Of a stretch of 20,000 nt of DNA, positions 488 through 19,157 are shown piece after piece. Position 1 is the first letter of the stretch. Each line of letters begins with the position of its first letter. A model generated the notes under the pieces. That model was given only the letters and a program-made list of their open reading frames with translations, was not told the origin of the DNA and searched no databases. Origin of the DNA: an uncultured virus (IMG/VR IMGVR_UViG_3300043803_001696) (lineage: Duplodnaviria; Heunggongvirae; Uroviricota; Caudoviricetes); the IMG/VR virus record IMGVR_UViG_3300043803_001696; one strand, written 5' to 3'. Made by a program: the position numbers and the translations under genes.

Positions 488-562
488 CGCCAATTGTGCA
501 AAGATGTTGTGATTAAAGCTGGCACGATGGAAGTTTGAGCTAGGCTTTTTCCTGTTGTCACC

Positions 563-584
563 AGCCCGCATGAGCGGGCTTTTT
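563..584 (+). terminator. intrinsic terminator-like hairpin immediately upstream of the RNR alpha gene
   Basis: AGCCCGC-ATGA-GCGGGCT followed by TTTT, ending 6 nt before the ATG at 591. Confidence 0.6.
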
Positions 585-590
585 CGTCTC

Positions 591-2123: not shown

Positions 2124-2858
2124 ATGACCGTCCTTGAAAAGAGCCCCTATTCAGCAATGATCGCCAAGAAGCGCCCCTGGCAAGCCACGCCAGTGGACAA
2201 TTCGCCTGTGAAGGAAGGCGCTGAATCCACGCTTTTCAAGACCATTGCTTTGCGCCACCTTGAACTGCCCGTGAAGGACTTGCTTGAGCAAGGCTTACAG
2301 AAGGAACTGCCTTCCACTCCTGGCATCATTGAGGCGTTGCGCTCCAACCAGAAGGATGAAGAGCGTCATGATGAAGCGCTGAACTATGTTGCTGCCGCCT
2401 ATGGCACTGACGAGAAGGCAGAGCGAGAAGTGCAAAACATCTTGAAGGTGTGGATGGAGCACCCCGCCCATCCAATTCATAAAGTGTCCATTATTGAGCG
2501 TTCTATCTTCTTCGTTGCCCTGCCGTTCTTCCGCTTCAATGGCAACATCGGCATGCGCACGGTGTCAGCAGACATTAGCCGTGACGAGCAAGTGCATTGT
2601 GGCGTTCATGGTTTGGTGGCCAAGGAACTGGGCGAAACGGAAACGGAAAGCCTTAATAAGCTGCGCATTGCCACTGCTGGCTGGCTGTTTGAGCACTTGG
2701 GCAAGAGCGATGATCAATGGCTCGACAAAAACGCTTGGATGCAGCGCTCTGAGCGCCTGTTCTGGGAAGGAAAGGCTTCTGGCATGGAAGACTCCCGTCG
2801 TAGCCGTCAAATCGCGTTCTTTGAAAGTTCAAACGTAAATCTTCCATGCTATGGTTGA
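2124..2858 (+). CDS. nrdB: ribonucleotide reductase small (beta) subunit, ferritin-like, cyanophage type
   Basis: Directly downstream of alpha. Di-metal ligand pattern E (RHLE), DEERH, E (IIER), DEQVH. C-terminus AFFESSNVNLPCYG. Leu, not Tyr, lies four residues after the first His ligand. Confidence 0.9.
   Translation: MTVLEKSPYSAMIAKKRPWQATPVDNSPVKEGAESTLFKTIALRHLELPVKDLLEQGLQKELPSTPGIIEALRSNQKDEERHDEALNYVAAAYGTDEKAEREVQNILKVWMEHPAHPIHKVSIIERSIFFVALPFFRFNGNIGMRTVSADISRDEQVHCGVHGLVAKELGETETESLNKLRIATAGWLFEHLGKSDDQWLDKNAWMQRSERLFWEGKASGMEDSRRSRQIAFFESSNVNLPCYG
2823..2855 (+). repeat. imperfect direct repeat, copy 1 (3' end of nrdB)
   Basis: 25 of 33 nt identical to 3516-3548, including a perfect 14-nt core AACGTAAATCTTCC (2832-2845 and 3525-3538). 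Confidence 0.9.
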
Positions 2859-2885
2859 CATTTGATTCCCTTCTTATGCTATGAT
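2855..2885 (+). promoter_or_regulatory. sigma70-type promoter for the HNH gene
   Basis: TTGACA (2855-2860, overlapping the nrdB stop codon), a 19-nt spacer, and extended -10 TGcTATGAT (2877-2885). The spacer is longer than optimal. Confidence 0.6.
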
Positions 2886-2886
2886 T

Positions 2887-2912
2887 ACGGGGTTAACCAC
2901 CCCGTTTTTTTT
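2887..2912 (+). terminator. intrinsic terminator hairpin abutting the HNH start codon
   Basis: ACGGGGT-TAACC-ACCCCGT, with a run of 8 T (2905-2912), then ATG at 2913. Confidence 0.7.
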
Positions 2913-3554
2913 ATGGAAGAAATCTGGAAACCTATTCCTGGCTACGAAAATTTATACGAAGCCTCAAGCTTGGGTAATATTAGATCTGTAGACAGGACTG
3001 TTTTAGATGAGCGAAATCAGAAGCAGCGCACGCGCACATTCAGGGGGAGACAATTGTCCCCAAATATCAATAAAGATAGCGGCCGTCATTCTGTCATGCT
3101 TTCTAAAGAAGGAAAGACAAAAAGATTCACAGTCGCTCGTTTAATTTGCCTGGCTTTTCATGGCTTGCCTCCAGAAGGGAAAAATTTAGTATTGCATTAT
3201 GACGACATTCATACAAATAATATGCCAGAAAACTTAAGGTGGGGCAATCACTTGGAAAATCTAGAAGATTGCGTTCGCAATAGAGGCTCTCATCCCCGTT
3301 ACATTGATGGCAGAAGCAATCGCAAGAGAGGACCAGTCGGGGGCGCCATCTTAAATGAGTATCAAGTAAGAGTGTTGAGGCGACTTCCTGACCTACGCTC
3401 ACTGCGAGGGTTGAGGGAAGACCTGGCCGAAGAGTGGGGAGTCGCTCCTTCTAGCATATCCAGCGCCAAATACAAACAAACAGCGTGGAACACGCTATCT
3501 CCTGTGCCGCTATGGGAAATCGCCAACGTAAATCTTCCTTCCTACGGCTCTTGA
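2913..3554 (+). CDS. NUMOD4 + HNH homing endonuclease with a C-terminal helical domain and an nrdB-derived tail
   Basis: N-terminal EEIWKPIPGYENLYEASSLGNIRS (NUMOD4); HNH_3-like VARLICLAFHG...VLHYDDIHTNNMPENLRWGNHLEN; ends in EIANVNLPSYGS. Confidence 0.92.
   Translation: MEEIWKPIPGYENLYEASSLGNIRSVDRTVLDERNQKQRTRTFRGRQLSPNINKDSGRHSVMLSKEGKTKRFTVARLICLAFHGLPPEGKNLVLHYDDIHTNNMPENLRWGNHLENLEDCVRNRGSHPRYIDGRSNRKRGPVGGAILNEYQVRVLRRLPDLRSLRGLREDLAEEWGVAPSSISSAKYKQTAWNTLSPVPLWEIANVNLPSYGS
3516..3548 (+). repeat. imperfect direct repeat, copy 2 (nrdB-like 3' end fused in frame to the HNH ORF)
   Basis: Encodes EIANVNLPSYG, compared with ESSNVNLPCYG at the end of nrdB. Confidence 0.9.
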
Positions 3555-4712: not shown

Positions 4713-6089
4713 TCAGCGTACCAGACTGTTCAGCCAATCAATATCATTATCCTTAGAGGCTTCAAGAATGGCACCAGCCAAGGCAAAAGCGTAGTCATCT
4801 ACTCCCACTTCTTTACCACCAGTTACTGCCCATTGCCCACTGCTTCTGTAGATAACACTGAGGTTTTTCAGTTGCTTGACGGCTTTCTCGTGAGGATACA
4901 TTTCAATAAGGCCAGCATTAAAGAGCTCCTTCATCTTGCTAAATGCTTTCATCTTGGTGCTAACGGACCAAGCAAGTTCAGCAATGGGGAAGTCTTTAGA
5001 CATGCTTTGAATGGTGCCAGAACTGTTGAACTGGTCAAGCACAATACTTTGAAAATCGTAAATGCGGTGGTGCTCCCTAATCCATTCTTCTACCTTGGCA
5101 ATATTCACTTCTTTCTTTCCGCCAATATCAAAATCAGGCTCAAAGGCGTGAAATTTGTCCACCACTAGGCGCTCACCTTCGTAATGCACAATGCAAGCAG
5201 TGTAATCATCTCGACCCACGCCACCACGAGCAGGGTCAAGGGCCAATACATATGTTCCCATTAGTTCACGCTGCGGAAACAAAATGCCCCTTTCTTTATT
5301 CACGGAAATGTCAACAATCTCCGCTGCCAACAATGCAGAGTTGTTCTTGGCAAACTGAGCACCATATTCCACCCAGAACTTATCAGGGTCGCGTTTTAGT
5401 TCAGCTTCAAGGAACGGACACCCCCATGGCAAATTTGGATTGACTGTCCAAGTGGCCAGGTTTTCCGCTTGCATGAACGGGTAGTCACCAGACGTGGCTT
5501 CGCAATAGTGTTGATAGAACAAGCCATCAGTGAGCCATGGCGAAGACAGTTCCAGGATGCGACCGTGCTTGCCAAACTGAGCGATGGAGGGAGACAGGGC
5601 TTGGTAGATGGCACCGGCGCCACGGTTGGCATCGCCTTCAATGGCAAAGCTCAGCTCGTCCATGATTAGCATCACCACGGCTTTACCACGAGAAGCACGA
5701 GCTGATGCGGGAATGGCCTGGAACACGCAATTATTGCTCACTTCAATCTCAGTGGCCGTCTCCCTAGTGATCTCACCCACCAAGGGAGAGTCCATCAACA
5801 ATTGACGGATGTTGTTCAGGGCAAGCTTGGCCTGGCTTTGATCGTTTGCAATGGTGAGGATGTAAAACTTTTCCGACTTTCTTACGCGCCTCTTGTATTG
5901 ATCTTCCAGAACAAAGCAGGCATAGAGCGCTGCAATGGAGGCCATGAGCGTCTTACCACAGCGTCGGCCTAGTGCCCACACAGCGTGCGTCTTGTCTCCA
6001 CCAAAATAAGAATCAAGAATGCGCTTCTGCTCAGGCCACAACTCTAATTGCAGAACTAGCTTGGCAAATTCACTGCATTTAAGCTTCAT
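4713..6089 (-). CDS. terL: terminase large subunit
   Basis: Q motif (LWPEQ), Walker A GRRCGKT, Walker B MLIMDE, coupling motif LSSP, and RNase H-like nuclease acidic motifs LALDPA...DDYTA, VLDQF, DDYAFALA. Confidence 0.95.
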   Translation of the reverse strand: MKLKCSEFAKLVLQLELWPEQKRILDSYFGGDKTHAVWALGRRCGKTLMASIAALYACFVLEDQYKRRVRKSEKFYILTIANDQSQAKLALNNIRQLLMDSPLVGEITRETATEIEVSNNCVFQAIPASARASRGKAVVMLIMDELSFAIEGDANRGAGAIYQALSPSIAQFGKHGRILELSSPWLTDGLFYQHYCEATSGDYPFMQAENLATWTVNPNLPWGCPFLEAELKRDPDKFWVEYGAQFAKNNSALLAAEIVDISVNKERGILFPQRELMGTYVLALDPARGGVGRDDYTACIVHYEGERLVVDKFHAFEPDFDIGGKKEVNIAKVEEWIREHHRIYDFQSIVLDQFNSSGTIQSMSKDFPIAELAWSVSTKMKAFSKMKELFNAGLIEMYPHEKAVKQLKNLSVIYRSSGQWAVTGGKEVGVDDYAFALAGAILEASKDNDIDWLNSLVR

Positions 6090-6571
6090 GCAAGTTCATC
6101 CATGCTGCGCAACTTTTCTTTAGGGACAAAATATGCAGGGCGTCCACGGGCAGGATCAGCCCAATATTTCTCCTCCATCGCCTCTTCTCCATAGCACCAG
6201 CCATGGATGAGGGTGGTCTTGTCTTCAATCGTAACCAAGACAAACTTCTTTTTCGGACTTTCGTTTTTTTGGACGATCAAGTCATATTTATGCTTGCTTC
6301 TGGTTTTTACGTCAATGCCAGGCAGATCATCAGAGCCGCGCTTAGCTTCAGTTTCTTGATAAAGCAAAGGTTTCATGCCCAGATAAGAGGCCACTGCCAT
6401 TTCCCCCGCCGCGCCCAGTAGATGAATATCCAGAGCCTTGCTTCCCTTCCAGGCTCCGCCATTACGCCCGCGCAAGCCTTTGCTTTCATTAAAGCCCTGG
6501 CGCCTCAGTCCTTCCTCCATGGCCAATTGACGTTCTTCATCAGTGAAGACAAATTCAATGGGAGTGGGCAT
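6086..6571 (-). CDS. putative PD-(D/E)xK nuclease-fold protein, translationally coupled to terL
   Basis: Pattern GAAGEMAVA...GSDDL..IDVKT; ATGA overlap with terL. Start set at ATG 6571 because the longer ORF runs into the portal gene. Confidence 0.65.
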   Translation of the reverse strand: MPTPIEFVFTDEERQLAMEEGLRRQGFNESKGLRGRNGGAWKGSKALDIHLLGAAGEMAVASYLGMKPLLYQETEAKRGSDDLPGIDVKTRSKHKYDLIVQKNESPKKKFVLVTIEDKTTLIHGWCYGEEAMEEKYWADPARGRPAYFVPKEKLRSMDELA

Positions 6572-6586
6572 GATTAAATGGACATC

Positions 6587-6603
6587 GTGGCTACTGTAGC
6601 CAC
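6587..6603. promoter_or_regulatory. perfect 8-1-8 inverted repeat in the divergent terminase/portal promoter region (operator-like)
   Basis: GTGGCTAC-T-GTAGCCAC. Overlaps a minus-strand TACAGT hexamer (6593-6598) and lies next to a plus-strand TAGCAT (6608-6613). Confidence 0.55.
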
Positions 6604-6637
6604 CAGTTAGCATGGATGCAACACATAATGCGGGAAA

Positions 6638-8683
6638 ATGTCGGAAGAAATCGTCAATCTTGGCCACAACGGCAATGAGAGCCTGCGAGTGGACGGTCTG
6701 GTGAATGCCCTCACAGGCATGGGCACTGGTCGCGACAAAAGCCAATTCACTTCCGCCCAGCCCATCGTCTTTCTCACACAGGAAGAACTAGAAAACCTTT
6801 ATTCCGAGTGGATTCCCAAGCGAATTGTGGACATTGTTGCCGAACAAGCCACTAGAAAGGGTTTCAAGGTGCTGTTTGGTGGAGAAGGTGCTGCCGCTGA
6901 AGAGGTGGCTGGCATTGAGCAAATTATCGAGGATTTATACATCCTTGAGAACCTCGGTCTTGCTTGTAAAAATGCACGACTTTTTGGCGGCGCAGTTATT
7001 CTTCTGTACATCGACGACGGGCGCCCTGCAAACCAGCCCGTAGATCGACGGAACATCCGCAGTATTGAAGGTATGGAAGTGCTTGATCGCTGGCAGATTG
7101 CCCCAGTGATCAGCGAGGAAAGTCTCTACGACTATTCCAAGGCCACTTACTATCAAATCATTTCTGGCGACCTCATTCGCCAGCCACAACTCACTTACAT
7201 CCACAAAGACAGGATCCTGAGGTTTGATGGGGAATGGCTTCCCTACAGGATCAGGCAGCGGAACTATGGGTGGGGGATGAGCAGTCTGCAGAGTGTTTAT
7301 GACAGCTTTCGCTTCTATTCCACTGGCATTAGTTCTGCAGCCACGCTTCTTACTGAATTTGACATCTTTGTGCATAAACTTCGCGGCCTGTCCACGATGC
7401 TTGCTGCTGGCAAAGAAAAGGACGTGCGCGATCGCCTGATCTTGAACGACATGAGCAAGAGCGTGTATCGCGGCTATGCAATTGACGCAGAGAAAGAAGA
7501 GCTGGAATTCATTAGCCGCAACTTTGGTGGCATTGGAGAAATCCTGGAGAAACTGCGCATTGATATTATTGGCGCCTCACAAATTCCTCACACCATTCTT
7601 TTTGGGGAAAGCCCTAGCGGATTGGGCTCCACTGGCCGGAGCGAAGAGCGTGACTTTGCAAAAATGTTGGGTGACTATCAGGCATCTCGATTCAAGCGCC
7701 CAATCAAGCATCTCATGGAGATGATTCTTCTGAGCAAAGACGGTCCCACCAATGGACAAGTGCCTGATTCATGGCGCATTCATTTCAACGACTTGTTTGA
7801 ACTGAATGAAAGGGAGAAGGCCGACGTGAGGGCTCGCGTGGCGGCAGTAGACGGCCGTTACATCCAACTTGGCGTGCTCCACCCGAAAGAAGTGGCAGAG
7901 GCCCGTTATGGCGGTTCTGAATGGTCAATGGAACTCACTCTCGACCCATCGCTTCCCCGTGAACTGCCGCAGCCCGGCGGTGAGATGAAAGTGCCTCCTG
8001 GTGGGCGCGACCCAATGAACGAAGAGAATGGCACTCTGCCGATGGACGGAAGCCGTGAGGTGCAAGATGCAGCAGGATTGTTCTTGCCTCGCGACCTTGA
8101 AAAGGTCAGGGGCGACGTGCAGTTCAAAGACAAGGATCTTCACCAGCAAGCCATTGCTGCTACAAAGTCAAAGTTCAAAGTATGGCCGAGCGCTTATGCC
8201 AGCGCATACATGGTTCAGAAATACAAAGAACTTTATTCCAAGAAGCACGGTGGTGGCAGTGGCTTCAAGGGGGACGATGGTGACGTGAATTACGACGATC
8301 TTGACAAGTGGTTCAAGGAAGAATGGGTGAGGATTGGAGCCAATGGAGAAATCCTTGGCGAATGCGGCGGTCGCGAAGAGAAGGAAGGTAAGCCCAAGTG
8401 CCTACCCAAGGCAAAGGCCCAAGCCATGAACAAGGAAGAGCGACAGACGATTGTAGCCCGCAAGCGTAAAGCTGACCCTGATCCTGATCGTCGGGGACCA
8501 GCAAAGCTTGTTAGCAGCAAAGTGGATGCTATTGAGCCCATGAAAGTGGAAGGGCTAATGCTTGCTGACATTGACGAGGCTGCGTTTATTTCGGACGAAG
8601 ACATCGAGGATGCTATGAAGCAATGGAAGGAAGAAGCTCCAGCACAGTTCAAAGAGCTGCTAGAGGCTGACAATGCTGAATGA
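6638..8683 (+). CDS. portal protein (DUF1073 / HI1409-like) with a C-terminal extension of about 240 aa
   Basis: Portal motifs LY...W..KRIVD..AE.ATRKG, ARLFGG, IHKDRILRF, GWGMS.LQ, IPHTILFGESPSGL and F..L...NE.EKA. Followed by a Pro/Gly linker and small domains (KFKVWPSAYASAYMV..YK; LDKWFKEEWV...CG...PKCLP). Confidence 0.9.
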   Translation: MSEEIVNLGHNGNESLRVDGLVNALTGMGTGRDKSQFTSAQPIVFLTQEELENLYSEWIPKRIVDIVAEQATRKGFKVLFGGEGAAAEEVAGIEQIIEDLYILENLGLACKNARLFGGAVILLYIDDGRPANQPVDRRNIRSIEGMEVLDRWQIAPVISEESLYDYSKATYYQIISGDLIRQPQLTYIHKDRILRFDGEWLPYRIRQRNYGWGMSSLQSVYDSFRFYSTGISSAATLLTEFDIFVHKLRGLSTMLAAGKEKDVRDRLILNDMSKSVYRGYAIDAEKEELEFISRNFGGIGEILEKLRIDIIGASQIPHTILFGESPSGLGSTGRSEERDFAKMLGDYQASRFKRPIKHLMEMILLSKDGPTNGQVPDSWRIHFNDLFELNEREKADVRARVAAVDGRYIQLGVLHPKEVAEARYGGSEWSMELTLDPSLPRELPQPGGEMKVPPGGRDPMNEENGTLPMDGSREVQDAAGLFLPRDLEKVRGDVQFKDKDLHQQAIAATKSKFKVWPSAYASAYMVQKYKELYSKKHGGGSGFKGDDGDVNYDDLDKWFKEEWVRIGANGEILGECGGREEKEGKPKCLPKAKAQAMNKEERQTIVARKRKADPDPDRRGPAKLVSSKVDAIEPMKVEGLMLADIDEAAFISDEDIEDAMKQWKEEAPAQFKELLEADNAE

Positions 8684-9350
8684 CTTATCTTCGTTCAGCA
8701 GCGTCGTTATGTCTATCAGGATGGACGCTGAATGGTCTTATGACCGCCGCAGTGGACGTTATCGTGACGAGAAAGGCCGATTCCTAAGTAAAACATCAGT
8801 GGGTAAGCTTGTTGATGGTCGCATTGACAAGCTGGAGGCGCAACTAAAGCGTTTCACGCGGATGTTAGGAGACGGTTCAATTACGCTTGATCAATGGCAG
8901 GGAAGCGTTCGTGAAGCAATTAAAGCAGCGCACATTCAAGCAGCGACCATTGGCTACGGCGGAAGGGCCGAAATGGGCAGCGCGGAATATGGTCGCATCG
9001 GCCAACGCCTCCGTGCGGAATACACTTATCTACAAGGTTTTGTACGTGACCTTTTGGATGGCCGTATTTCTGCCCCTATGGCTGTTGCTCGTATTGGCCT
9101 CTATGCTCAGAGCGTGCGGGGCTCTTATTGGCAAGGCACAGAAATGCGCGAGCAACAACGTGGGTTTTCGTTGATGCGCCGCATCTTGGATGCTCAAGCA
9201 GTGCATTGCCAAGACTGCCTTGGCTATGCAGCGCGTGGCATCGTGCCTATTGGCAGCGTTCCCATGCCTGGTGTGCGTTGTGCATGTGGAGCACGCTGCA
9301 AATGCACGGTTAAATACTTTAGGCAGCAACCACAAGCTGTGCCAGTATAG
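8673..9350 (+). CDS. minor head / head morphogenesis protein (Mu gpF / SPP1 gp7-like)
   Basis: Follows the portal gene; Cys-rich C-terminus HCQDC...PG..CACGARCKC; N-terminal RYRDEKGRF motif. Confidence 0.75.
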   Translation: MLNDLSSFSSVVMSIRMDAEWSYDRRSGRYRDEKGRFLSKTSVGKLVDGRIDKLEAQLKRFTRMLGDGSITLDQWQGSVREAIKAAHIQAATIGYGGRAEMGSAEYGRIGQRLRAEYTYLQGFVRDLLDGRISAPMAVARIGLYAQSVRGSYWQGTEMREQQRGFSLMRRILDAQAVHCQDCLGYAARGIVPIGSVPMPGVRCACGARCKCTVKYFRQQPQAVPV

Positions 9351-9370
9351 TAAGGCAAAGCTTGAAGCCC

Positions 9371-10123
9371 ATGAAAGTCCTTTTAGGAGACACTGGTTTA
9401 ATTGGCAGAGTTTTGCAGCAATCTACTAACTTTGATGCCACCTTTAATTCCAGCAACATTCACGAGCTGCCGAATATTGCCAATATGCCGGGGCAAGTAG
9501 ACGAGCTGTATCTTGCATGTCTGCCCGCGACGAAGTGGCTAGTTAATCAAGACCCAGCAAAAGATTTAAACAATATTCTTTCCATTGTCGATGTATTGAC
9601 GACAGTTTGGGCGACAAAAGTAATTCTTATTTCTACCATTGATATTTATCAACATACTGACTGCGGAGCAAGTGAAGACTTTTGGACACATTTTGGCCCA
9701 TTGGGTTACGGCTCCAACAGGCTTCTATTTGAAACACTTATCCAAAACACGCTTGCTTTTAACACTTGCATTGTGCGGCTCCCCGCTGTCTTTCATCCGC
9801 TCATTAAAAAGAACATTTTATTTGACTTGCTTAATGATAATAATGTGGAGCAAATCAACGGCAACTCGGCCTATCAGTGGTATCCACTTAATCGTCTATG
9901 GCAAGACATTCAATCGGTAAAAGGCGAAGGTGTAATCAATCTGTTTCCGCCTCCCATTGAAACTTTGGACATTATTGACAAGTTTTTTCCGAATGCGCAA
10001 ATCGCTTCTGGGGATCGAATTTCTTACGATTACAGCACCATGGCCACGCAAAGTGGTTATTGGCTTTCCAAGGATGAAGTGATGCAAGAGATGGAGGCAT
10101 TTATCAATGAAGCTCGGAGTTAG
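9371..10123 (+). CDS. NAD(P)-dependent epimerase/dehydratase (extended SDR-like)
   Basis: Rossmann motif LLGDTGLIG, ILISTIDIY, YGSNR (variant of YxxxK) and IVRLPAVF. Confidence 0.85.
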   Translation: MKVLLGDTGLIGRVLQQSTNFDATFNSSNIHELPNIANMPGQVDELYLACLPATKWLVNQDPAKDLNNILSIVDVLTTVWATKVILISTIDIYQHTDCGASEDFWTHFGPLGYGSNRLLFETLIQNTLAFNTCIVRLPAVFHPLIKKNILFDLLNDNNVEQINGNSAYQWYPLNRLWQDIQSVKGEGVINLFPPPIETLDIIDKFFPNAQIASGDRISYDYSTMATQSGYWLSKDEVMQEMEAFINEARS

Positions 10124-10826
10124 CGCGATTGGCTGGGAAGCCGAGGACCATTCTGAAATCGTGCTGCATCTTCCCGATGGCATTGAACTATTAGAAGCAG
10201 TGCCTTTTAAAAGGCACAGTCGTTTTTCTGGCTGTCTACAAAAATATTCTGCTCAATCGTTGTTCTACGGCATGGACATTGATGCGTTTTGGAATGAACA
10301 GGCTTTTGATCTGTGCTTGGCAAAGTTAATAGCAATGGCGCAAAAATATGAATGGAAAAGAATGGTACTTGGCAGTCCAGGGTTGCGCAAAGATGACAGG
10401 CGTTATTTAATGGACGCGCTTGCAAGAAACAACGATGCGCTTGCCGCCATTGATTGTATTGTTTGCATTGAGCCCGTGGCTAAGCCATATGGTGGTGAAT
10501 ACTTTTTCACGGTTGAAGAAATTGTTCAAAGCCTTGCCGAGTATTCTTTATCGCACGTAGCAACAATGATCGACACAAACAGTGCATGGCTAGAGAGTCA
10601 ATGGCCAGAAGACGTGCTTCTTCAATACTTTCCATACATTAAGCATGTCCACATTAGTGACCAAAACATTGGCGCCATTATTTGCCAGGACAAGCACGAA
10701 CGTTTTGCAGAGGCGTTGCGCAATACCGAGTATGAAGGCGGAGTGATTCGCGAGCTATTAAAGGCAAAAAACTATCCAGGTGAGTACGATTATTTCGCTC
10801 AAATTTACAAGCCATCCAGCATTTGA
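10107..10826 (+). CDS. sugar phosphate isomerase/epimerase (xylose isomerase-like TIM barrel)
   Basis: Motifs KLGVSAIGW, VLGSP..R, CIEP, MIDT and HVHIS; GGAGG upstream. Confidence 0.8.
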   Translation: MKLGVSAIGWEAEDHSEIVLHLPDGIELLEAVPFKRHSRFSGCLQKYSAQSLFYGMDIDAFWNEQAFDLCLAKLIAMAQKYEWKRMVLGSPGLRKDDRRYLMDALARNNDALAAIDCIVCIEPVAKPYGGEYFFTVEEIVQSLAEYSLSHVATMIDTNSAWLESQWPEDVLLQYFPYIKHVHISDQNIGAIICQDKHERFAEALRNTEYEGGVIRELLKAKNYPGEYDYFAQIYKPSSI

Positions 10827-11788
10827 CGCACTCGCTCTTCAATTAAGTAGATGCCTTGAATTTTGCCTGTGTAGCAAGACAGAAGATTGTCTTGCTGTTT
10901 GAATAATGGCGCTCGATAGGCACTGGCATTACTTCGCTTGCTTTTCATTGAAAGCACAATGCTGTGCTGAGAGAGATGGTTTGAAAAATCAGGCCAGTAA
11001 TGACAAACGTGATTTTCTGCTTTACGTCTAAGCTGTTCCAACTGTTCCCTTGATGGTTCTTCGTTGACAGGAGCGACTGATTCCGTCGCAACGCTATGCA
11101 CCACATGACTTAAAGAAACGGTGCCATCATGAAATGGATAAAAAGAAAACAATGGCCCGTCAATATAAGTAAGAGCGCCAAAAGGCAAAGGCTTTTGAAC
11201 GCTATAAAGAAACATTGCCACTGCTTCAAAGTATTCATTCTTTGATGGTTTCAATAGCGCATTATTAGTGCAATCAATTACCAAATCAAAGTCGCTTTTT
11301 AATCTTTCTACATCCTTGCTTGTAATTTCGCTTTGCTTGAACAATGGAGATAGCCGCTCAGAAAAGAATTTTTTGGCCTCTATGGGGGAAATGTAGCGCT
11401 CCTGTGTGCGCCAGACCATAGAAGTGTCACGGAGGAAGCTAGTCTCAACTTCTTCGTGTTGCCAAAGCAATGGAGGGAAAATAGTCTTAATAGTTCCAGC
11501 ATCTAAAAGGCTCTCGTCCTCTGGCACTGCGTACAAATTATTTTTTACAGCATAAGTAAGTGCTCCATATTCGTGCATAAAACGATCAAAAGTGAGCCGA
11601 CATAATGCGCGTGTGGCGGAATTTCTAGCGTAGTGGTAGCCAAGGTGAAGGCGGTTTTGGTTTACCAGTGAAGCGCCGTGGAATGGCTCATGCTCGCGAT
11701 CAAAAAGCGTGATGCAATATTCATTTCTAAGCTGATAGGCCAAGTGACATCCCACCCAGCCAGCTCCAATAATTGCCAAGCGTTTCAT
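10805..11788 (-). CDS. FAD-dependent oxidoreductase (DAO-like)
   Basis: AIIGAGWVG dinucleotide-binding motif, GAS..NQNRLHLGYHY and C-terminal YTGKI. Confidence 0.85.
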   Translation of the reverse strand: MKRLAIIGAGWVGCHLAYQLRNEYCITLFDREHEPFHGASLVNQNRLHLGYHYARNSATRALCRLTFDRFMHEYGALTYAVKNNLYAVPEDESLLDAGTIKTIFPPLLWQHEEVETSFLRDTSMVWRTQERYISPIEAKKFFSERLSPLFKQSEITSKDVERLKSDFDLVIDCTNNALLKPSKNEYFEAVAMFLYSVQKPLPFGALTYIDGPLFSFYPFHDGTVSLSHVVHSVATESVAPVNEEPSREQLEQLRRKAENHVCHYWPDFSNHLSQHSIVLSMKSKRSNASAYRAPLFKQQDNLLSCYTGKIQGIYLIEERVRQMLDGL

Positions 11789-12483
11789 TAAATGTCAATA
11801 CAAAGGTGAGGTTGAACGCCTTGCCAATTACTTTTTGCTTTGGCTAGGTCCAATTGAGGGAAGTATTCAATGCGGCGTTGTGAGCCAGTGCCATACGGGT
11901 CGGCGTGCCCCTGGTAATTCCACTCGTCAGGGCCATGACTATCTAGATGGTAAACATGGCAATGTGCGTCTTGGAGTTTCCAAAGCATGTAATCCTCGTT
12001 TGGCACTCCCCATTGCTTCCACTGTTGAAGTGCTTCTGGAGAGCTGTCCATGTTTTTGATGGCCATTAAGCGATCTCGATGCTGCATGAGATAGTCGTGG
12101 CGATACAGGCCAATACTCATTGACGGCGTGTATTTCATTGCAACCTTTTCTGGTGCATCCACAGGAGGCTCATAGGCTAATTGCTTAAAGGCCGCGCCTG
12201 CAATGCAGGTGTCATGCAGAAGGAACCAATATTCGCTTTCCATGGATTGCTCAACAATTTCAATGAGCGGGGTGTATTCAAAAGAATTTTGCTGCGTTAG
12301 CAACATTGGAACGCCTTCGCAGTCTGTCAAAGTATGAGCAGTCTGTCCACCATTCACAATTAATATTTCCTCTGGTTCGATACCAGCCGCAAGCAAGCTT
12401 GGAATAATTACTGGAATGGTATGGGGCGCAAACTTTTTGCAAGTACTGATACAGAAGCGAATCGAGCCCTCTGGAAGTGCCAT
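11788..12483 (-). CDS. putative GT-A fold glycosyltransferase
   Basis: N-terminal beta-alpha pattern (FCIST...ILIVNG), NSFEY and YWFLLHDTC (DxD-equivalent); located within a glycosyltransferase cluster. Confidence 0.6.
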   Translation of the reverse strand: MALPEGSIRFCISTCKKFAPHTIPVIIPSLLAAGIEPEEILIVNGGQTAHTLTDCEGVPMLLTQQNSFEYTPLIEIVEQSMESEYWFLLHDTCIAGAAFKQLAYEPPVDAPEKVAMKYTPSMSIGLYRHDYLMQHRDRLMAIKNMDSSPEALQQWKQWGVPNEDYMLWKLQDAHCHVYHLDSHGPDEWNYQGHADPYGTGSQRRIEYFPQLDLAKAKSNWQGVQPHLCIDI

Positions 12484-12544
12484 TTAGTCCCCTTTTGTCA
12501 TCAGTATAAAAGCCCACTAGGATGGCGAAGATTCACGAAGGATT

Positions 12545-13768
12545 ATGGCTCGCGTTCTTTATTGCGGTGACGCATTCGTTCAAACGGGCTTTGGACGAGT
12601 GGCTGAATACCTGCTCCCTGCGCTTGCTGAGAAGCACGAAGTGCATGTGCTCGCCACTAATTACCATGGCGACCACGATGAGGAGGCCATTAAATACAAA
12701 ACTTACCCAGCCATGGTGCATGGCTCCGACCCATTTGGCGGCCATCGTATTGCCGAACTAGTTCAAACCATTAAGCCTGATCTCGTATGGGTGACGAATG
12801 ATCTGTGGGTGGCTATTAACTTGTGGGGGGCAGTAAAGACTCTCAGGGAAACAATTCCCTTTAAATTTTTTGTATATACGCCCATTGACAGCTATGGCAT
12901 TTTCCCTGAGCTAAATGGTCCAGTGAGCGAATGGGATGGACTCGCCACTTACACAGAATTTGGCAAAGAAGAGCTAGTCAAGATGGGCTATGAAAAGCCT
13001 ATCGCCGTCATTCCACATGGCACGGACTTCACTAAATTCTTCCCCATTGACCCTCTTGAATGCCGCAAGGAGCTAGGCGTGCCAGGGGATACGTTTATTG
13101 TCTTCAATGGCAATAGGAACCAACCACGCAAGCGCATTGACTTGACCATTAAAGGCTTCGTTGAATTTGCCAAGGACAAGCCTGACGCTCGCCTGTGGCT
13201 AAATATGGGAGCTAAGGATATGGGCTGGGAGTTGATTCCATTGTTTAAGCGCGTGGCGCGTGATGCAGGGTATGACGCTGCTGGCAAGCTTATTCTCACT
13301 AGCCCGCATTTCTCCACGCATAACTGCCTTCCCATTGAACAATTGAACAAGGTTTACAACTCTGTTGATATTGGCCTAAACACCTGCATAGGCGAAGGAT
13401 GGGGCCTGGTGAACAGTGAGCACGCTGCTACAGGCGTTGCGCAAGTAGTACCCGACCACACAAGTCTTAAGGAGATTTTTAATGACATTCCACGCATCGC
13501 TTGTAACGGTTCCGAAACTGATAGAAACTATGGTTTAGAGCGTTTACTGCCTGACCCCAGTAGCGTTGCTGACATCCTTAATTACTACTACGAGGATCGT
13601 AATGCTTTGAAGGCTGCTGGTAATTGGTGCTACGAGCGCATTCACGAAAAGCAATTCACCTGGCCTGTCATCACCAAAAAGATGTTGCGCATCGTAAATG
13701 AAGTGCTTAATCAAAAGCCAAGTGATCAAGAGTTTAAAGGTTTTGGCACCCCCGCAAAAATTGTTTAA
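12545..13768 (+). CDS. GT-B fold glycosyltransferase (GT4-like)
   Basis: Motifs TGFGRV, IPHG.D...F.P, NRNQPRKRID and YNSVD.....GEGWGL...E. Confidence 0.9.
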   Translation: MARVLYCGDAFVQTGFGRVAEYLLPALAEKHEVHVLATNYHGDHDEEAIKYKTYPAMVHGSDPFGGHRIAELVQTIKPDLVWVTNDLWVAINLWGAVKTLRETIPFKFFVYTPIDSYGIFPELNGPVSEWDGLATYTEFGKEELVKMGYEKPIAVIPHGTDFTKFFPIDPLECRKELGVPGDTFIVFNGNRNQPRKRIDLTIKGFVEFAKDKPDARLWLNMGAKDMGWELIPLFKRVARDAGYDAAGKLILTSPHFSTHNCLPIEQLNKVYNSVDIGLNTCIGEGWGLVNSEHAATGVAQVVPDHTSLKEIFNDIPRIACNGSETDRNYGLERLLPDPSSVADILNYYYEDRNALKAAGNWCYERIHEKQFTWPVITKKMLRIVNEVLNQKPSDQEFKGFGTPAKIV

Positions 13769-13773
13769 TCATC

Positions 13774-14487
13774 ATGCAAGTATCACAAATTTTTCTTTCT
13801 GATAACGGCGCCGAACTGTCACCATTCCTAGGACACGCCACGGGCACTGTACGTCAAGCATTTCCTGACGCAGACCATCACATTTACACCAAGGAAACCC
13901 TTCGCGCCTTCATTGAAGCTAACTATTCAGGGGAAGTGCTATGGGCCTACGACTGTCTAAAGCCCTATTCGTATAAAGCTGATCTTGGCAGGTTTTGCTT
14001 GTTGAATAAGCTTGGAGGGTGGTACATGGACATTGCCGTCAGAATGGTAAATCCAGTGGAGGTGGGAGATCGTATTGAATTTTTGGCCTTCCGCGATATT
14101 CAACGATTTAGCTACACCACTTGGGCCTGCGCGACCACTGTTCTTTATTCAAAGCCCGACAACATAGCACTGACTACTGCCATTGAAATGATTGTCAACA
14201 ACTGTCACGAACAGTACTACGGAATCACTCCATTGTGCCCCACTGGCCCAACATTACTAGGAGCAGCTCTTGCTGCAAATGGCGGCAATGCCAATTTCGT
14301 CTACGGCGATTATCTAGAACTGACACCCACGCACGAACAAAAGAATCGTGCCTTTGTGCTGCCCGATGGCACGATCATGGCGTGGAGCAAGCCTTCGGGA
14401 GGGGGCGACTTGACTGGCGTTGGGGCCAAGGGTGTAAACAATTACAACGAACTTTGGGCTGCGAGGCAGGTATATGCAACCGTCTGA
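13774..14487 (+). CDS. DxD glycosyltransferase (GT32 / Och1-like)
   Basis: Motifs KADLGRFCLL...GGWYMDI and TGP.LLG. Confidence 0.85.
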   Translation: MQVSQIFLSDNGAELSPFLGHATGTVRQAFPDADHHIYTKETLRAFIEANYSGEVLWAYDCLKPYSYKADLGRFCLLNKLGGWYMDIAVRMVNPVEVGDRIEFLAFRDIQRFSYTTWACATTVLYSKPDNIALTTAIEMIVNNCHEQYYGITPLCPTGPTLLGAALAANGGNANFVYGDYLELTPTHEQKNRAFVLPDGTIMAWSKPSGGGDLTGVGAKGVNNYNELWAARQVYATV

Positions 14488-16469: not shown

Positions 16470-17663
16470 ATGAGCGACACCTGCTTTCGTTACGATGTAG
16501 CGCCGATTGACAAGTACGAAGTGACCCCTGAGGGTTATCTTCGTGCCTGGGCAACCATTGCGCGTACTGGTGTACAACATTACACCGACGCTGATGGCTC
16601 CATTCGTCGCGAATATCGTCCCGAAACCGAAGTGGCGTCTCCTGAAAGCTTGGCCTCATTTGCGGGCAAAGCAATCACTCTTGAGCACCCGCCAGTCTTA
16701 TTAGATAGTGTTAATACCAAGGACTATCAAATTGGCTTCAGTGGCACTGAAGTGGTATATGACAACGGCTTTGTCCGTGCAGTTATGACTATCACTGATA
16801 AAGATGCCATTGAGCGCATTATGCGTGGTGATGCGAAGGAGGTCAGCGCAGGCTATCGCGTCAATTACGAGGCGACTCCTGGTGTAACTGACAGTGGTGA
16901 GAATTACGATGGCATCCAAAAGGAAATCAACGGAAATCACATTGCTGTTGTTCGCAGAGGTCGCGCTGGCCCGCAAGTGAAGCTTCATCTAGATCGTCTG
17001 GATGCTGCCGATCCTTCTCTATTTACTCCCATTGAGGAACCATCTATGACTGCAAAAGTCAATTTTGATGGCGCTGAGTTTGAGGTGACCGAGAGCGTAG
17101 CTCTGGCGATCACCAAAGAACGGGAAGACGCCAAAATGTCCTACGAGGACATGAAGAAAATGTACGATGGCATGATGGCCAAAGCTTCCGAGATGAAGGA
17201 AGAAATGGACGCCATGCAAAAAGAAATGAAAGGTAAGTGCGACTCTGCCGAAGGGCGGGCCGATGCCCTTGCCGAAGAAGTGGAAAGCCTCAAGACTGAC
17301 CTTGACACTGCCAAGCAAGTGAATGTTGACAGCCTTGTTGAAGAGCGCATTGCGCTAATCGACAAAGCTCGTACTTCCCTTGACTCCGCTTTTGACTTTG
17401 CTGGCAAATCTGCCCGTGAAATCATGGAAGCTTCCATCAAGGCTATTCGTGGTGATGCTGATCTGTCGGAACGCTCCGATGATTATGTGACTGCGATGTT
17501 CGACACCTTGGCCGAATCTGCTCCTCGTGGCGATTCTGCTGCTACGGAAGAACTGCGTAAAGCCGTTGCTTCCATTGCTTCCCCAATGTCTGCTCCTTCG
17601 TCCTATATGGATAAGCTGCAGAATGCTTGGAAATCCCCTCTCTCCGTCTCTAAGGAGCGCTGA
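16470..17663 (+). CDS. DUF2213-type prohead protease fused to a coiled-coil scaffold domain
   Basis: Motifs TPEGYL.....IARTGVQ.Y, ITLEHP, EVSAGY and NHIAVV.RGRAG, then a Met/Glu/Lys-rich coiled coil; located upstream of the decoration and capsid genes. Confidence 0.9.
   Translation: MSDTCFRYDVAPIDKYEVTPEGYLRAWATIARTGVQHYTDADGSIRREYRPETEVASPESLASFAGKAITLEHPPVLLDSVNTKDYQIGFSGTEVVYDNGFVRAVMTITDKDAIERIMRGDAKEVSAGYRVNYEATPGVTDSGENYDGIQKEINGNHIAVVRRGRAGPQVKLHLDRLDAADPSLFTPIEEPSMTAKVNFDGAEFEVTESVALAITKEREDAKMSYEDMKKMYDGMMAKASEMKEEMDAMQKEMKGKCDSAEGRADALAEEVESLKTDLDTAKQVNVDSLVEERIALIDKARTSLDSAFDFAGKSAREIMEASIKAIRGDADLSERSDDYVTAMFDTLAESAPRGDSAATEELRKAVASIASPMSAPSSYMDKLQNAWKSPLSVSKER
17046..17663 (+). 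CDS. putative nested in-frame scaffolding protein (205 aa) from an internal start
   Basis: TGAGGA (17033-17038) lies 7 nt before in-frame ATG 17046 (Met193), at the protease/coiled-coil boundary. Confidence 0.6.
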   Translation: MTAKVNFDGAEFEVTESVALAITKEREDAKMSYEDMKKMYDGMMAKASEMKEEMDAMQKEMKGKCDSAEGRADALAEEVESLKTDLDTAKQVNVDSLVEERIALIDKARTSLDSAFDFAGKSAREIMEASIKAIRGDADLSERSDDYVTAMFDTLAESAPRGDSAATEELRKAVASIASPMSAPSSYMDKLQNAWKSPLSVSKER

Positions 17664-18242: not shown

Positions 18243-19157
18243 ATGTCTGATTTTCGCATGGACGAAGCGGGCCTGTTTCTTGAGCGTCAGCTTGAGTTCA
18301 TCCGCCCCCAAGTATTTGAAGTCACTTATGCCGACATCAAATACCCCACCCTGCTGCCTGTAACCAGCGAAGCTGGTCCTGGCGCACAAACCTTCACCTT
18401 CCGCATCATGGACTCCACTGGAGAGTTCAAGCTGATTGCGGACGCTGCTGATGATCTGCCCCGTGCCGACATTAGCCAAGTGGAGAAGAGCATCAACATC
18501 CGTTCGTTCGGCGGTAGCTTCGGCTACACCGTGCAGGAACTGCGTGCCGCTCAAATGGCAAACATTGCTCTTGAGCAACGTCGCGCTTCTGCCGTTCGTC
18601 GTGCTTACGAAGAGAAAGTTGAAGCCGTTGCAATGTTCGGTGAATCGAGCGTTGGCCTGGCTGGTTTCTTCAACAACGCCACTGTTGACGTTATTACTGC
18701 TGACAAGTGGTTCACTGGCACCACTGCTAGCGGCACTGCTCAAGACATGCTGGAACTGTTGAACTATGGCGTTAGCGCCATCATCAACGCCTCCAACATG
18801 AAGGAGCAGCCCGACACCATCCTGTTGGCTTACGAGGACTACAACAAAATTAGCACCACTCGCAACTCCGATTCTTCGGACGTGACTGTGCTTGAGTATT
18901 TCCTCCGCACCAACCCCTACATCCGTAACGTTGAACCTATCAACCAACTGGATGCAGACAACAGCGTTCTGAACACTAACCGCATGGTGGTGTACAAGCG
19001 TGACCCCGAGAAAGTGCAACTGCACATCCCCCAACCCCTGGAGCTTTTCCCGCCCCAGCAGCGCGGTCTTGAGTTCATTGTTCCTGCTCATGCTCGCGTG
19101 GGTGGTGTGGCTCTGTACTACCCCAAGAGCGTCATCTACGTTCAAGCTTCGGCTTGA
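18243..19157 (+). CDS. major capsid protein (DUF2184 / HK97 fold)
   Basis: Motifs FL.RQLE.I, DLP, Y..QELRAA and A.FG....GL.GF.N; strong SD AGGAGG at 18229-18234; strongly biased codon usage. Confidence 0.92.
   Translation: MSDFRMDEAGLFLERQLEFIRPQVFEVTYADIKYPTLLPVTSEAGPGAQTFTFRIMDSTGEFKLIADAADDLPRADISQVEKSINIRSFGGSFGYTVQELRAAQMANIALEQRRASAVRRAYEEKVEAVAMFGESSVGLAGFFNNATVDVITADKWFTGTTASGTAQDMLELLNYGVSAIINASNMKEQPDTILLAYEDYNKISTTRNSDSSDVTVLEYFLRTNPYIRNVEPINQLDADNSVLNTNRMVVYKRDPEKVQLHIPQPLELFPPQQRGLEFIVPAHARVGGVALYYPKSVIYVQASA

Follow-up and report, generated by a model that had tools for sequence, protein, structure and literature searches.

The case, made computationally, that phages bring ready-made proteins into the cell rests mainly on fusions of extra domains to portal and MuF proteins. 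In an S-CBS4-like cyanosiphovirus, the 681-aa portal protein continues past its core with a C-terminal tail of 247 residues (residues 435–681). A preliminary description had read this tail as a string of small domains and as a possible slot for delivered effectors. Here, we describe what the tail consists of, how it varies among close relatives and which role agrees best with the evidence, based on a stretch of 20,000 nucleotides (the window) from a 48.6-kb viral contig.

The portal gene and the anatomy of its tail

The portal belongs to PF06381 (Phage_portal_3, formerly DUF1073; 213.6 bits against a gathering score of 33.8, profile positions 2–353 of 357), and it also matched the phrog_146 portal (E 8.3e-102). 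A sequence search of solved structures with the whole portal returned matches to portals only, the closest being the Pam3 portal 8hds (E 7.5e-24). As expected for a PF06381 portal, the gene lies in a head-gene cluster beside the large terminase gene (4713–6089, minus strand, divergent from the portal), with genes for a protease, a cement protein and the major capsid protein (MCP) downstream (Table 1). The PHROG family of the protease, phrog_530, is that of head maturation proteases. The start of the 225-aa protein encoded next to the portal overlaps the portal stop by 11 nt, and its initial ML is invariant in 11 aligned relatives. This protein matched no Pfam family at E up to 10, including the MuF/SPP1 gp7 profile (PF04233). 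Its position makes it a candidate for a minor head protein, and we take its place after the portal and its C-terminal Cys cluster to resemble those of MuF.

Table 1. Features of the portal gene, its tail and related head genes (positions in the window)
Feature	Position	Strand	Basis
Portal gene (P0001), 681 aa	6638..8683 (stop codon included)	+	ORF list, translation, Pfam/PHROG matches
Pfam-matched portal core, residues 50–403	6785..7846	+	PF06381, E 4.4e-63
Pro/Gly-rich flexible linker, residues 435–472	7940..8053	+	Composition, pLDDT below 50
Copy of MCP N-terminal peptide, residues 476–491, QDAAGLFLPRDLEKVR	8063..8110	+	Sequence match to MCP
Module A, helical hairpin, residues 498–545	8129..8272	+	Pfam; AF2 helices, pLDDT 84–87
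Module B, basic two-Cys cassette, residues 553–629	8294..8524	+	phrog_23735, E 3.1e-13; AF2
Disordered joint, then acidic terminal helix, residues 630–681	8525..8680	+	Net charge -13
Downstream 225-aa Arg-rich protein with C-terminal Cys cluster	8673..9350	+	phrog_24776 (unknown function), E 2.8e-78
Prohead protease (DUF2213) with coiled-coil, scaffold-like C-terminal half	16470..17663	+	PF09979, E 9.6e-43; phrog_530, E 1.2e-100
Major capsid protein (MCP)	18243..19157	+	PF09950

The tail starts just past the last core residues conserved with S-CBS4. Translation, composition and AlphaFold2 (AF2) models bore out the anatomy proposed earlier, namely a Pro/Gly linker after the core, a part of about 50 aa, a Cys-bearing basic part of about 80 aa and an acidic terminal helix. 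Pro and Gly make up 14 of the 38 linker residues; the length of the linker differs among relatives through Gly-rich insertions, and the block 'VPPGGRDP..NG.LPMDG.RE' is conserved. Module A, of 48 aa and net charge +6, shows the pattern 'F.DK.LH..A.AAK.KFKVWPSAYAS'. Module B, of 77 aa, contains two Cys, 19 K/R and 15 acidic residues, so that its net charge is only +4; its predicted fold is alpha-beta3-alpha2, and when modelled alone it reached a pLDDT of 80 and a pTM of 0.65. In the AF2 models, A, B and the terminal helix (tail residues 219–242, pLDDT about 80) each folded on their own, and pLDDT fell below 50 in the stretches between them. Note that these models were built on shallow alignments (23 and 42 rows). 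No convincing ribosome-binding site for an internal start of the tail was found before M449 or M469.

The K/R-x-D motif, which had been taken to mark the domain boundaries, failed in this role. The tail contains four such motifs (at residues 491, 544, 611 and 628) against 3.9 ± 1.7 predicted from composition, 2849 of 5000 shuffles reached four, and one of the four falls within module B. Among 20 aligned relatives, only K628-x-D630-A631 was invariant. As a processing motif, K/R-x-D was rejected because of this chance frequency.

The absence of the paired HxT motifs of Acb1 and the 2H phosphoesterases was confirmed: of the two His in the tail, one lies in 'LHQQ' and the other in 'KHGG', and neither HxT nor HxS occurs. 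Neither did the tail match any Pfam 2H family at E up to 1. The fold-search lists for the tail and module B contain no 2H chain, although such lists do not exclude a fold.

DUF5872 as two separable modules

DUF5872 (PF19197), a family of unknown function from nucleocytoviruses and tailed phages, matched portal residues 498–595 (42.3 bits, where the cut-off is 27.5; E 1.3e-10; profile positions 3–87 of 116) and occurs once in the contig. The basic domain had previously been called DUF5872-like. The family assignment stands, with a match above the cut-off, but the extent has to be revised, as the first two 'domains' of the tail together make up one DUF5872: module A is its N-terminal half and module B its C-terminal half. 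At the level of sequence, modules A and B together are the Pfam family, which is made of two separable modules. What differs from the family as recorded is that DUF5872 is here resolved into two modules, each of which can occur without the other and either of which can come first. It would represent two independent, strongly conserved mini-domains common to cyanophages, other marine phages and giant viruses. In the literature, we found DUF5872 only as an entry in a gene table, in the available part of PMC12085832.

Neither module A nor module B matched an enzyme family, and searches by sequence and by fold paired neither with a solved structure. A profile of the tail gave no matches to solved structures at E up to 10, and neither the tail nor module B had a Foldseek match in the PDB at E up to 0.001. 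With VIA wide, the best match of the tail (Z 4.5, rmsd 3.9, 50 aligned) lay over the generic helical hairpin of module A, and module B alone reached a best Z of 2.4. The ESM Atlas neighbours were DUF5872 clusters from Nucleocytoviricota and Uroviricota. Structure prediction gave A, B and the terminal helix as separate folds in AF2, and Foldseek and VIA wide matched neither the tail nor module B to a known fold. Such absent matches are no proof that the folds are new.

Modules A and B recur, in either order and at any position, in 1587 clusters of very different proteins. When 64 module-bearing representatives were scanned, three were portals (of two families), one was a Mu-type prohead protease and four carried phrog_13484, annotated 'virion structural protein'. 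DUF5872 was found in the tails of a Portal_Mu portal (P0129) and of the more distant PF06381 portals P0136 and P0145; P0129 and P0136 combine portal, InPase and DUF5872. The modules also adjoin GNAT, methyltransferase and kinase-like domains.

In T4-like cyanophages, a module gene lies among neck and terminase genes. The members of 'T4-GC 119' with modules are PSSM2_123 of P-SSM2 and SSM1_115 of S-SM1. ORF29 of S-SCSM1, whose record is without the T4-GC 119 label, consists of modules B and A and two further small Cys-bearing basic blocks. The product name deposited for ORF29 is 'virion protein', and the S-SCSM1 paper, in its available part, reports a virion proteome by mass spectrometry. The P-SSM2 homologue is annotated 'hypothetical protein', and another gene in the same fetched stretch 'virion structural protein'. 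These mosaic basic proteins are built from the same modules A and B, together with the two small Cys-bearing basic blocks, but they stand alone and are not portal fusions.

A tblastn search of 50,697 phage records with modules A and B of the window gave no match at 1e-3, though S-CBS4 carries module A, tblastn being insensitive for such short pieces. When the cyanomyovirus-type member P0175 was used as a query, 370 records were matched. A related-locus search from an alignment returned only close portal relatives, and one from a second portal lineage (P0145) weak module matches only. In one of the latter loci (L092), a gene with a module-region match sits downstream of tail-fibre genes.

Tail variation among relatives and a copied capsid peptide

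We compared the tails of the 120 best core matches, which share at least 88% identity over residues 1–434. Modules A and B were present in 61 of them, A, B and DUF3721 in four, A only in 52, and the remaining three tails were truncated. Module A was kept in all full-length relatives (117/117), as was the terminal helix, whose alleles (two or more) reassort with the other tail parts. Module B was absent from S-CBS4 and from 52 of the 120 close relatives, and its function is therefore dispensable. S-CBS4, for which the record gives Synechococcus sp. CB0101 as host, has a tail of the A-only type. The relatives P0087 and P0074 matched DUF3721 with 36.1 and 34.0 bits, respectively, in an insertion that follows 'SSKVDA' and precedes the terminal helix; the tail in the window had no match to this family (PF12518) at E up to 1, and no mention of it was found in the literature.

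In one A-only portal, the core is almost identical; up to about residue 476, P0276 and the portal in the window are near-identical, after which P0276 continues into a divergent short tail; and P0094 joins module B to the terminal-helix allele of the short class. Modules of 72 aa and 60 aa come and go between crown and terminal helix while the core is unchanged. The tail behaves like a slot in which small basic domains are gained and lost between near-identical phages, and since it varies among the 120 core relatives, the extension is not an invariant part of the portal. The comparison of portal C-termini that the preliminary description had proposed gave four tail classes among the 120. The proposed effector slot is partly supported: the variable tail (61/4/52/3) and the presence of DUF5872 on two portal families speak for a slot, whereas a role of the modules as effectors, which have no enzyme family or structure match, and processing and ejection of the tail are not supported. 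This natural presence/absence series of one 77-residue module on near-identical portals amounts to a ready-made genetic experiment on what may be a head-internal passenger.

We next estimated selection on the portal segments from 49 unique genes (400 random pairs, saturated pairs dropped). dN/dS was about 0.04 for module B, the lowest of the portal segments, and 0.06 for both module A and the core, values that are rough because dS was saturated (about 1.6). Judged by these ratios, purifying selection acts on module B as strongly as on the core. Across 42 distant copies of module B, nine columns were invariant, among them G, C, C, P, A, R, K and G.

Between the linker and module A, portal residues 476–491 are identical at 10 of 16 positions to MCP residues 6–21 (window 18258–18305). 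None of 5000 shuffles of the tail reached the score of this match, and among 53,429 six-frame 16-mers of the 48.6-kb contig, the portal peptide was the best non-self match to the MCP 16-mer (score 47 vs 29 for the next). Note that the match is short, with a BLASTP E of 0.16 for the single pair, and that it was noticed before being tested. The same pairing of portal and MCP is seen in S-CBS4 (11/16). In five related contigs, the matched MCP stretch was near-constant (only residue 8 varies), and the portal pattern was recovered in three of the five. A search of the literature by title found no paper on a capsid copy on a portal.

The MCP of phage TLS is described as T1-like, and its mature N-terminus is 'ASDMGIW' (available part of PMC11447400), which begins three residues before 'MGIW'. 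In the solved 319-aa MCP 9kmg, 'MGIW' aligns with residues 9–12 of the MCP in the window, so that via 9kmg the mature N-terminus of TLS maps beside the copied peptide; the same paper states MCP maturation for T1, too. The residues before the putative site, however, are not common to the two proteins of the window, being 'MSDFR/MDE' in MCP and 'SREV/QDA' in the portal (the slash marking the putative cut). The MCP may escape cleavage altogether, because only five residues precede its putative cut. The papers searched gave no cleavage specificity for DUF2213 proteases. The peptide copy nevertheless suggests how the portal could be coupled to, or cut by, the assembly partner of MCP, and the protease-scaffold protein is a candidate for a partner common to the capsid N-terminus and the portal tail.

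Possible roles of the tail

The explanation that we prefer, as a tentative one with a real chance of being wrong, is that the portal tail is flexible and head-internal, that its constant parts serve as a frame for assembly and that its optional part is a cassette of modules that are packaged and probably face the DNA. Such a tail would hang inside the head, because portal topology puts the parts after the crown inside; in the Pam3 portal, the parts from inside to outside are barrel, crown, wing and stem, followed by the clip (available part of PMC9942802). The frame, kept in every full-length relative, would comprise the Pro/Gly tether, the capsid-peptide copy, the hairpin of module A and the acidic terminal helix, and the single cassette site between A and the terminal helix could be empty or hold either B or B with the DUF3721 module. 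During prohead assembly, the partner of the MCP N-arm, most likely the protease-scaffold protein, would bind the capsid-like peptide, and this contact would couple the portal to the scaffold core and might provide a cleavage site. Near the portal, modules A and B, both basic, would subsequently contact the packaged DNA, and the acidic terminal helix would bind a basic partner or fold back on the basic modules. Both A and B would be non-enzymatic members of a large pool of promiscuous mini-domains on marine-phage virion-associated proteins, with B on the portal as an optional, selected passenger and not a part of the portal machine. By portal stoichiometry, each head would probably contain twelve copies of these optional passenger domains, provided that the tail is not cut off and lost.

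Alternatively, the tail may be delivered effector cargo, which we regard as somewhat unlikely. The prohead protease would free it, plausibly at the capsid-like junction near residue 475, and the polypeptide of ~23 kDa or its modules would accompany the DNA into the host, where they would target a defence system or host nucleic acids. The prohead protease of phage T4 acts on internal proteins that bear a capsid-targeting sequence. In the tail, the capsid-junction copy is placed exactly where the tether gives way to the modules, the combination with InPase in P0129 and P0136 and the enzymatic neighbours of the modules elsewhere point the same way, and presence/absence polymorphism in near-identical phages is expected of an arms-race gene. 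Furthermore, the SPN3US portal gp81 is a substrate of the prohead protease, although the cut removes an N-terminal propeptide (PMC10052503). Portal and MuF fusions to InPase, 2H and PBECR domains have been read as injected effectors in the available part of Iyer et al. (2017, PMC5512222), so that the 2H-phosphoesterase fusions mentioned in the preliminary description are indeed in print. On the other hand, no enzymatic or known anti-defence family in Pfam matched the tail, the invariant residues of the modules (48 and 77 aa), namely W, G, P and two Cys, look structural, the residues before the putative cut differ between MCP and portal, and the conservation of the terminal helix at the distal end of the tail agrees better with a role in assembly than with one as cargo.

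Among the closest described counterparts of the tail are the polyvalent proteins of Iyer, Burroughs, Anand, de Souza and Aravind, among which gp124 of the Burkholderia phage BcepF1, a portal-InPase fusion, likewise carries extra domains C-terminal on the portal and thereby in the head. Modules A and B resemble these proteins in their co-occurrence with GNAT and kinase-like domains, and P0001 is anchored in the virion as the portal itself. Unlike them, the tail in the window is without an enzymatic domain: only portal and non-enzymatic mini-domains were detected in P0001, in place of the two or more domains of disparate, typically enzymatic activity that define polyvalent proteins, and the InPase-bearing P0129 and P0136 are closer overall. 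None of the Pfam LPD families matched modules A and B. The available part of PMC5512222 does not describe module presence/absence in populations, a capsid-peptide copy or DUF5872 modules. A broader version, which we consider unlikely, is that the capsid-peptide copy is a general loading and release device, on which the protease-scaffold protein docks, as on the capsid subunit, cuts and frees twelve module-bearing polypeptides in the head, with A/B as a widespread 'ride-with-the-DNA' adaptor. If this were true, the adaptor would load GNAT, kinase-like, InPase and methyltransferase domains into the capsids of marine phages and some giant viruses, and would add a second principle of anchoring to that of MuF and portal fusion.

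Module B and DUF3721 might also be tolerated mobile inserts, that is, selfish or drifting mini-domains brought by illegitimate recombination into permissive disordered regions at no benefit to the phage. The presence of modules A and B in 1587 clusters, whatever the position and order, the frequent gain and loss of modules and an insertion site in a linker with pLDDT below 50 agree with this, as does the short-allele junction 'YFKEDA/IEP', which looks like a clean deletion joining the first and last residues of B. However, dN/dS is lower for module B than for any other portal segment, nine of its columns are invariant in 42 distant copies, and the DNA-level direct repeats flanking it are only short, chance-like pairs, with no other mobility signature. 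The strong conservation of the protein module argues that its product is in use, and we consider such inserts quite unlikely.

No more probable, in our view, is that the tail, or at least its terminal helix, forms a fixed barrel- or crown-like extension of the dodecamer in which the modules are architectural. The P22 portal has a C-terminal barrel that projects into the head. Likewise, the closest solved relative, the Pam3 portal of 621 aa, is described as having a barrel that extends C-terminally into the head (available part of PMC9942802), and the terminal helix of the tail is long, modelled with a pLDDT of about 80 and always present. The AF2 model of the tail is that of a monomer and does not bear on a 12-mer barrel. 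The P22 and Pam3 barrels are continuous ordered helices, whereas the tail in the window consists of optional folded mini-domains on disordered linkers: its pieces are set apart by a linker that varies in length and by two stretches whose pLDDT is below 50, and the 72-aa and 60-aa modules are optional between crown and terminal helix on an unchanged core.

Anatomy, variation and selection of the portal tail

The 681-aa portal ORF matched PF06381 over residues 50-403 (Pfam, E 4.4e-63) and PF19197 (DUF5872) over residues 498-595, the latter with 42.3 bits against a cut-off of 27.5, so that the label DUF5872-like in the preliminary description was correct. Judged from its sequence, the window's portal belongs to PF06381 and PF19197 but not to PF12518 nor, as far as its motifs show, to the 2H family; the reported absence of the paired HxT motifs of the 2H family was confirmed, as neither HxT nor HxS was found anywhere in the tail (portal residues 435-681, 7940-8680). 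The K/R-x-D motifs proposed as domain boundaries did not hold up, given that the tail has 4 against 3.9 +/- 1.7 expected, 2849 of 5000 shuffles reached 4, and one lies inside module B.

The AlphaFold2 model of the tail (shallow alignment of 23 rows) had a mean pLDDT of 64.7, and tail residues 1-58 and 197-213 were mostly below 50. Three folded pieces were predicted, namely a helical hairpin in module A (pLDDT 84-87), an alpha-beta3-alpha2 unit in module B (75-89) and a 24-residue terminal helix (~80). Module B modelled alone, on a shallow 42-row alignment, gave a pLDDT of 80.1 and a pTM of 0.65. Foldseek searches of the PDB with the tail and with module B were negative, which is not proof of a new fold.

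Features of the window and segments of the portal tail
Feature	Position	Strand	Remark
Ribonucleotide reductase (RNR) large-subunit ORF	555-2036		before large terminase
RNR beta-subunit gene	2124-2858		before large terminase
NUMOD4+HNH homing-type endonuclease	2862-3554		before large terminase
Large terminase (TerL)	4713-6089	-
219-aa ORF	6086-6745	-	upstream of TerL
Portal	6638-8683	+
Tether, Pro/Gly	residues 435-472
Short conserved stretch	residues 473-497
Module A	residues 498-545		net +6
Acidic joint	between A and B		7 residues
Module B	residues 553-629		19 K/R, 15 D/E, two Cys
Acidic end	residues 630-681		net -13
225-aa Arg-rich protein	8673-9350		start overlaps portal stop
Sugar-modifying gene island	9362-15190		between portal/minor-head pair and prohead protease
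Island: ORF without family	9362-10123	+
Island: xylose-isomerase-like TIM barrel	10107-10826
Island: FAD oxidoreductase	10805-11788	-
Island: ORF without family	11788-12483	-
Island: GT4 glycosyltransferase	12545-13768
Island: DXD sugar-binding glycosyltransferase	13774-14487
Island: DUF4422 protein	14474-15190
102-aa ORF	15804-16112		just 5' of prohead protease
Prohead protease, DUF2213	16470-17663		coiled-coil C-terminal half
Cement protein	17667-18227
Major capsid protein (MCP), PF09950	18243-19157

The portal core alone (residues 1-434) was searched against 5.8 billion proteins, and the tails of the 120 best matches, all with at least 88% core identity, were classified. The counts come from this core-based list only; another match list was left out of them as biased to B-bearing tails. 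Modules A and B were both present in 61 of the 120 (676-697 aa), and 4 more (742-749 aa) carried an additional DUF3721 (PF12518) module that follows B and precedes the terminal helix, while 52 had A only (607-621 aa) and 3 were truncated (441-492 aa). DUF3721 was Pfam-confirmed in P0087, one of the four, and in the 733-aa relative P0074, which belongs to the same class but came from a separate search. In the 626-aa portal of S-CBS4, module B was precisely missing; the terminal helix was kept, as were the tether, module A and the stretch 473-497 between them. Furthermore, a 609-aa relative, P0276, is one residue off the window's portal to about residue 476 and then has a clearly divergent short tail, and another, P0094, combines module B with a terminal helix of the short-class allele, indicating that tails are exchanged as cassettes and that pieces inside them reassort. 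Comparison of portal C-termini for domain swapping, which the preliminary description had pointed to, thus yielded four tail classes among core relatives and the tail switch in P0276. The short-allele junction 'YFKEDA|IEP' looks as if the beginning of B ('WFKEE') had been fused to its end ('KVDA|IEP'), which suggests that the short allele may have arisen by a deletion. No flanking repeats were found at module B at the DNA level.

Selection was estimated by the Nei-Gojobori method on unique A+B portal genes, 49 in all, taken from the window and from viral-contig loci, using 400 random pairs from which saturated ones were dropped (142-293 left per segment). The dN/dS values, which are rough as dS was ~1.2-1.7, were 0.042 for module B, 0.063 for module A, 0.064 for the core, 0.096 for segment 473-497, 0.125 for the tether and 0.126 for the terminal part. 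Where module B is present, constraint on it is at least that on the portal core.

A capsid-like peptide in the tail

Portal residues 476-491 (QDAAGLFLPRDLEKVR) and MCP residues 6-21 (MDEAGLFLERQLEFIR) were alike at 10 of 16 positions, and the corresponding S-CBS4 pair had 11 of 16 in common. BLASTP of the single portal/MCP pair gave only E 0.16. The following statistics are post hoc, the resemblance having been spotted before it was tested: none of 5000 shuffles of either tail reached the observed ungapped score (window 47, S-CBS4 55; shuffle means 18, maxima 42 and 41), and when the MCP 16-mer was compared with all 53,429 stop-free six-frame 16-mers of the contig, the best non-self match was the portal tail (47), followed by scores of 29, 28 and 27. 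The pattern AGL[FY]L occurred in the contig only at the portal tail and the MCP N-terminus. In five related contigs the matched MCP stretch was nearly constant, only residue 8 varying. Two distant DUF5872-bearing portals, P0136 and P0145, have no capsid-like peptide before module A.

The MCP of phage TLS is described as T1-like, and its mature N-terminus was determined by Edman sequencing as 'ASDMGIW' (PMC11447400). Aligning the solved 319-aa MCP 9kmg to the window's MCP paired 'MGIW' with residues 9-12, 'AGLF'; the copied peptide therefore corresponds to the stretch with which the mature capsid subunit of those phages begins.

Modules A and B in other proteins and the role of the tail

A full HMMER scan with the tail as query, covering 1.84 billion representatives, returned 1587 proteins at E<=0.001, 771 at <=1e-10 and 19 at <=1e-30. 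Among the 150 matches listed, lengths ranged from 62 to 1703 aa and the match lay at any position, some extending over A+B (tail residues 74-196) and others over B alone (119-196). In short members the two modules stand in either order, or B is paired with another small module; DUF5872 therefore consists of two independent mini-domains. Across 42 sequences, module B had 9 invariant columns (G18, G22, C24, C36, P38, A42, R50, K57 and G68) and 18 nearly invariant ones, including W6, F7, W11 and K-P-K at 33-35.

Of these 150 matches, 64, chosen for length (>=305 aa) and not at random, were scanned with Pfam. Three were portals (P0129, Portal_Mu; P0136 and P0145, PF06381), two of which also have a phage-type InPase, and one, P0134, has a Mu-type prohead protease domain. 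DUF6321 was found in 5, GNAT domains in 3, and methyltransferase, Pterin_4a and sigma-70 region 4 in 1 each; 27 of the 64 had no Pfam family at 1e-5. A further scan gave a kinase-like fragment in P0143 and a sub-threshold ParB_N in P0265. Most scanned proteins fell into four families without known function (phrog_727, 3477, 38880 and 23735), and four proteins fell into phrog_13484, 'virion structural protein'. The typical member P0175 matched 370 records of isolated phages (308 Synechococcus, 36 'Cyanophage', 14 Prochlorococcus and 12 others). The module gene lies between gp15 and gp16 in P-SSM2 and between gp16 and gp17 in S-SM1, labelled T4-GC 119 in both. A Foldseek search of BFVD showed the B fold to be present in cyanophage proteins, one of which is named 'Virion protein' of S-SCSM1. 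The gene for it, ORF29 (L091:6663-8213; 517 aa), lies three genes upstream of TerL and carries B, A and two further modules; its virion status is that of the deposited product name, 'virion protein'. Mass spectrometry of the S-SCSM1 virion is reported to have identified 45 proteins, 13 of unknown function (PMC9602691).

Small Cys-bearing basic modules, such as 'CW.GY..KGMK..G..VPNCV' and a C-terminal '...CAR..GM...R.W.C' block, accompany A and B in P0137, P0140, P0143, P0146, S-SCSM1 ORF29 and P-SSM2 PSSM2_123 (L003:5983-6795), forming mosaic proteins whose module order varies from phage to phage. Separately, a 215-aa ORF of an unrelated 24.5-kb viral contig (L092:9992-10639), which directly follows three tail-fibre or collar-like genes, weakly matched the P0145 module region (36% identity, E 6e-6).

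A computational study of 2017 (PMC5512222) described portal and MuF proteins fused to InPase, 2H phosphoesterase and PBECR domains, and the window's locus likewise puts extra domains on the portal. Unlike the polyvalent proteins of that paper, its tail has no detectable enzymatic or disparate activity, their defining feature. In the literature searched, we found nothing on DUF5872 as two shuffled modules, on population-level presence or absence of a module on a portal tail, or on a capsid-peptide copy on a portal.

Because portal parts after the crown lie inside the head according to the Pam3 paper, the tail is most likely suspended inside the capsid by its ~40-residue tether. The mini-domain pool of B is common to portals, a prohead protease and virion-annotated proteins, and we therefore take the modules to be non-enzymatic parts of the head interior that are probably turned towards the packaged DNA or a partner in the head. 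We tentatively favor a tethered internal frame plus cassette, in which the parts that never vary (tether block, capsid-like peptide, hairpin A and acidic terminal helix) would fit an assembly role and B, with or without DUF3721, would be a passenger, selected yet dispensable. In the numerous other proteins that carry them, the modules could serve to keep the protein with the DNA. If the tail were cut at the capsid-like junction and ejected, the released and delivered effector of the preliminary description would follow, an outcome we regard as unlikely. That the modules are tolerated mobile inserts is quite improbable, as the selection on B speaks against it, and an ordered barrel-like structure, which would concern at most the terminal helix, seems no less improbable.

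Genome setting and neighboring genes

The source contig is a 48.6-kb IMG/VR record with an estimated completeness of 68%. The Synechococcus siphovirus S-CBS4 is the only named close relative, with 66% portal identity and 80% DNA identity along a 1-kb stretch of the capsid gene. The genes that S-CBS4 has at the place of the sugar-modifying island are fewer and of a different make-up, comprising two glycosyltransferases and a SAM methyltransferase. The 102-aa ORF weakly resembled the phage-type InPase, the domain fused to the DUF5872-bearing portals P0129 and P0136; the match (E 0.021) reached 15.1 bits and stayed below the cut-off of 26.8.

The 225-aa protein starts 11 nt inside the last portal codons; in 11 relatives its 'ML' is invariant and the third residue is N in at least 90%. 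It has a conserved C-terminal Cys cluster (HC..C ... C.CG..C.C) and no Pfam family, its sole match being phrog_24776 of unknown function, and hence a MuF identity was not detectable. The RNR large-subunit ORF has a TTG start and, at 493 aa, is short for the family, the Pfam barrel domain being matched in two stretches; the beta-subunit gene is next, followed by the homing-type endonuclease, which S-CBS4 does not have there. The 219-aa ORF matched phrog_18407 (unknown function) over residues 67-218. Read from its first TTG, it overlaps the portal start by ~100 nt, and its true start is probably further in; by position, it is a candidate small terminase.
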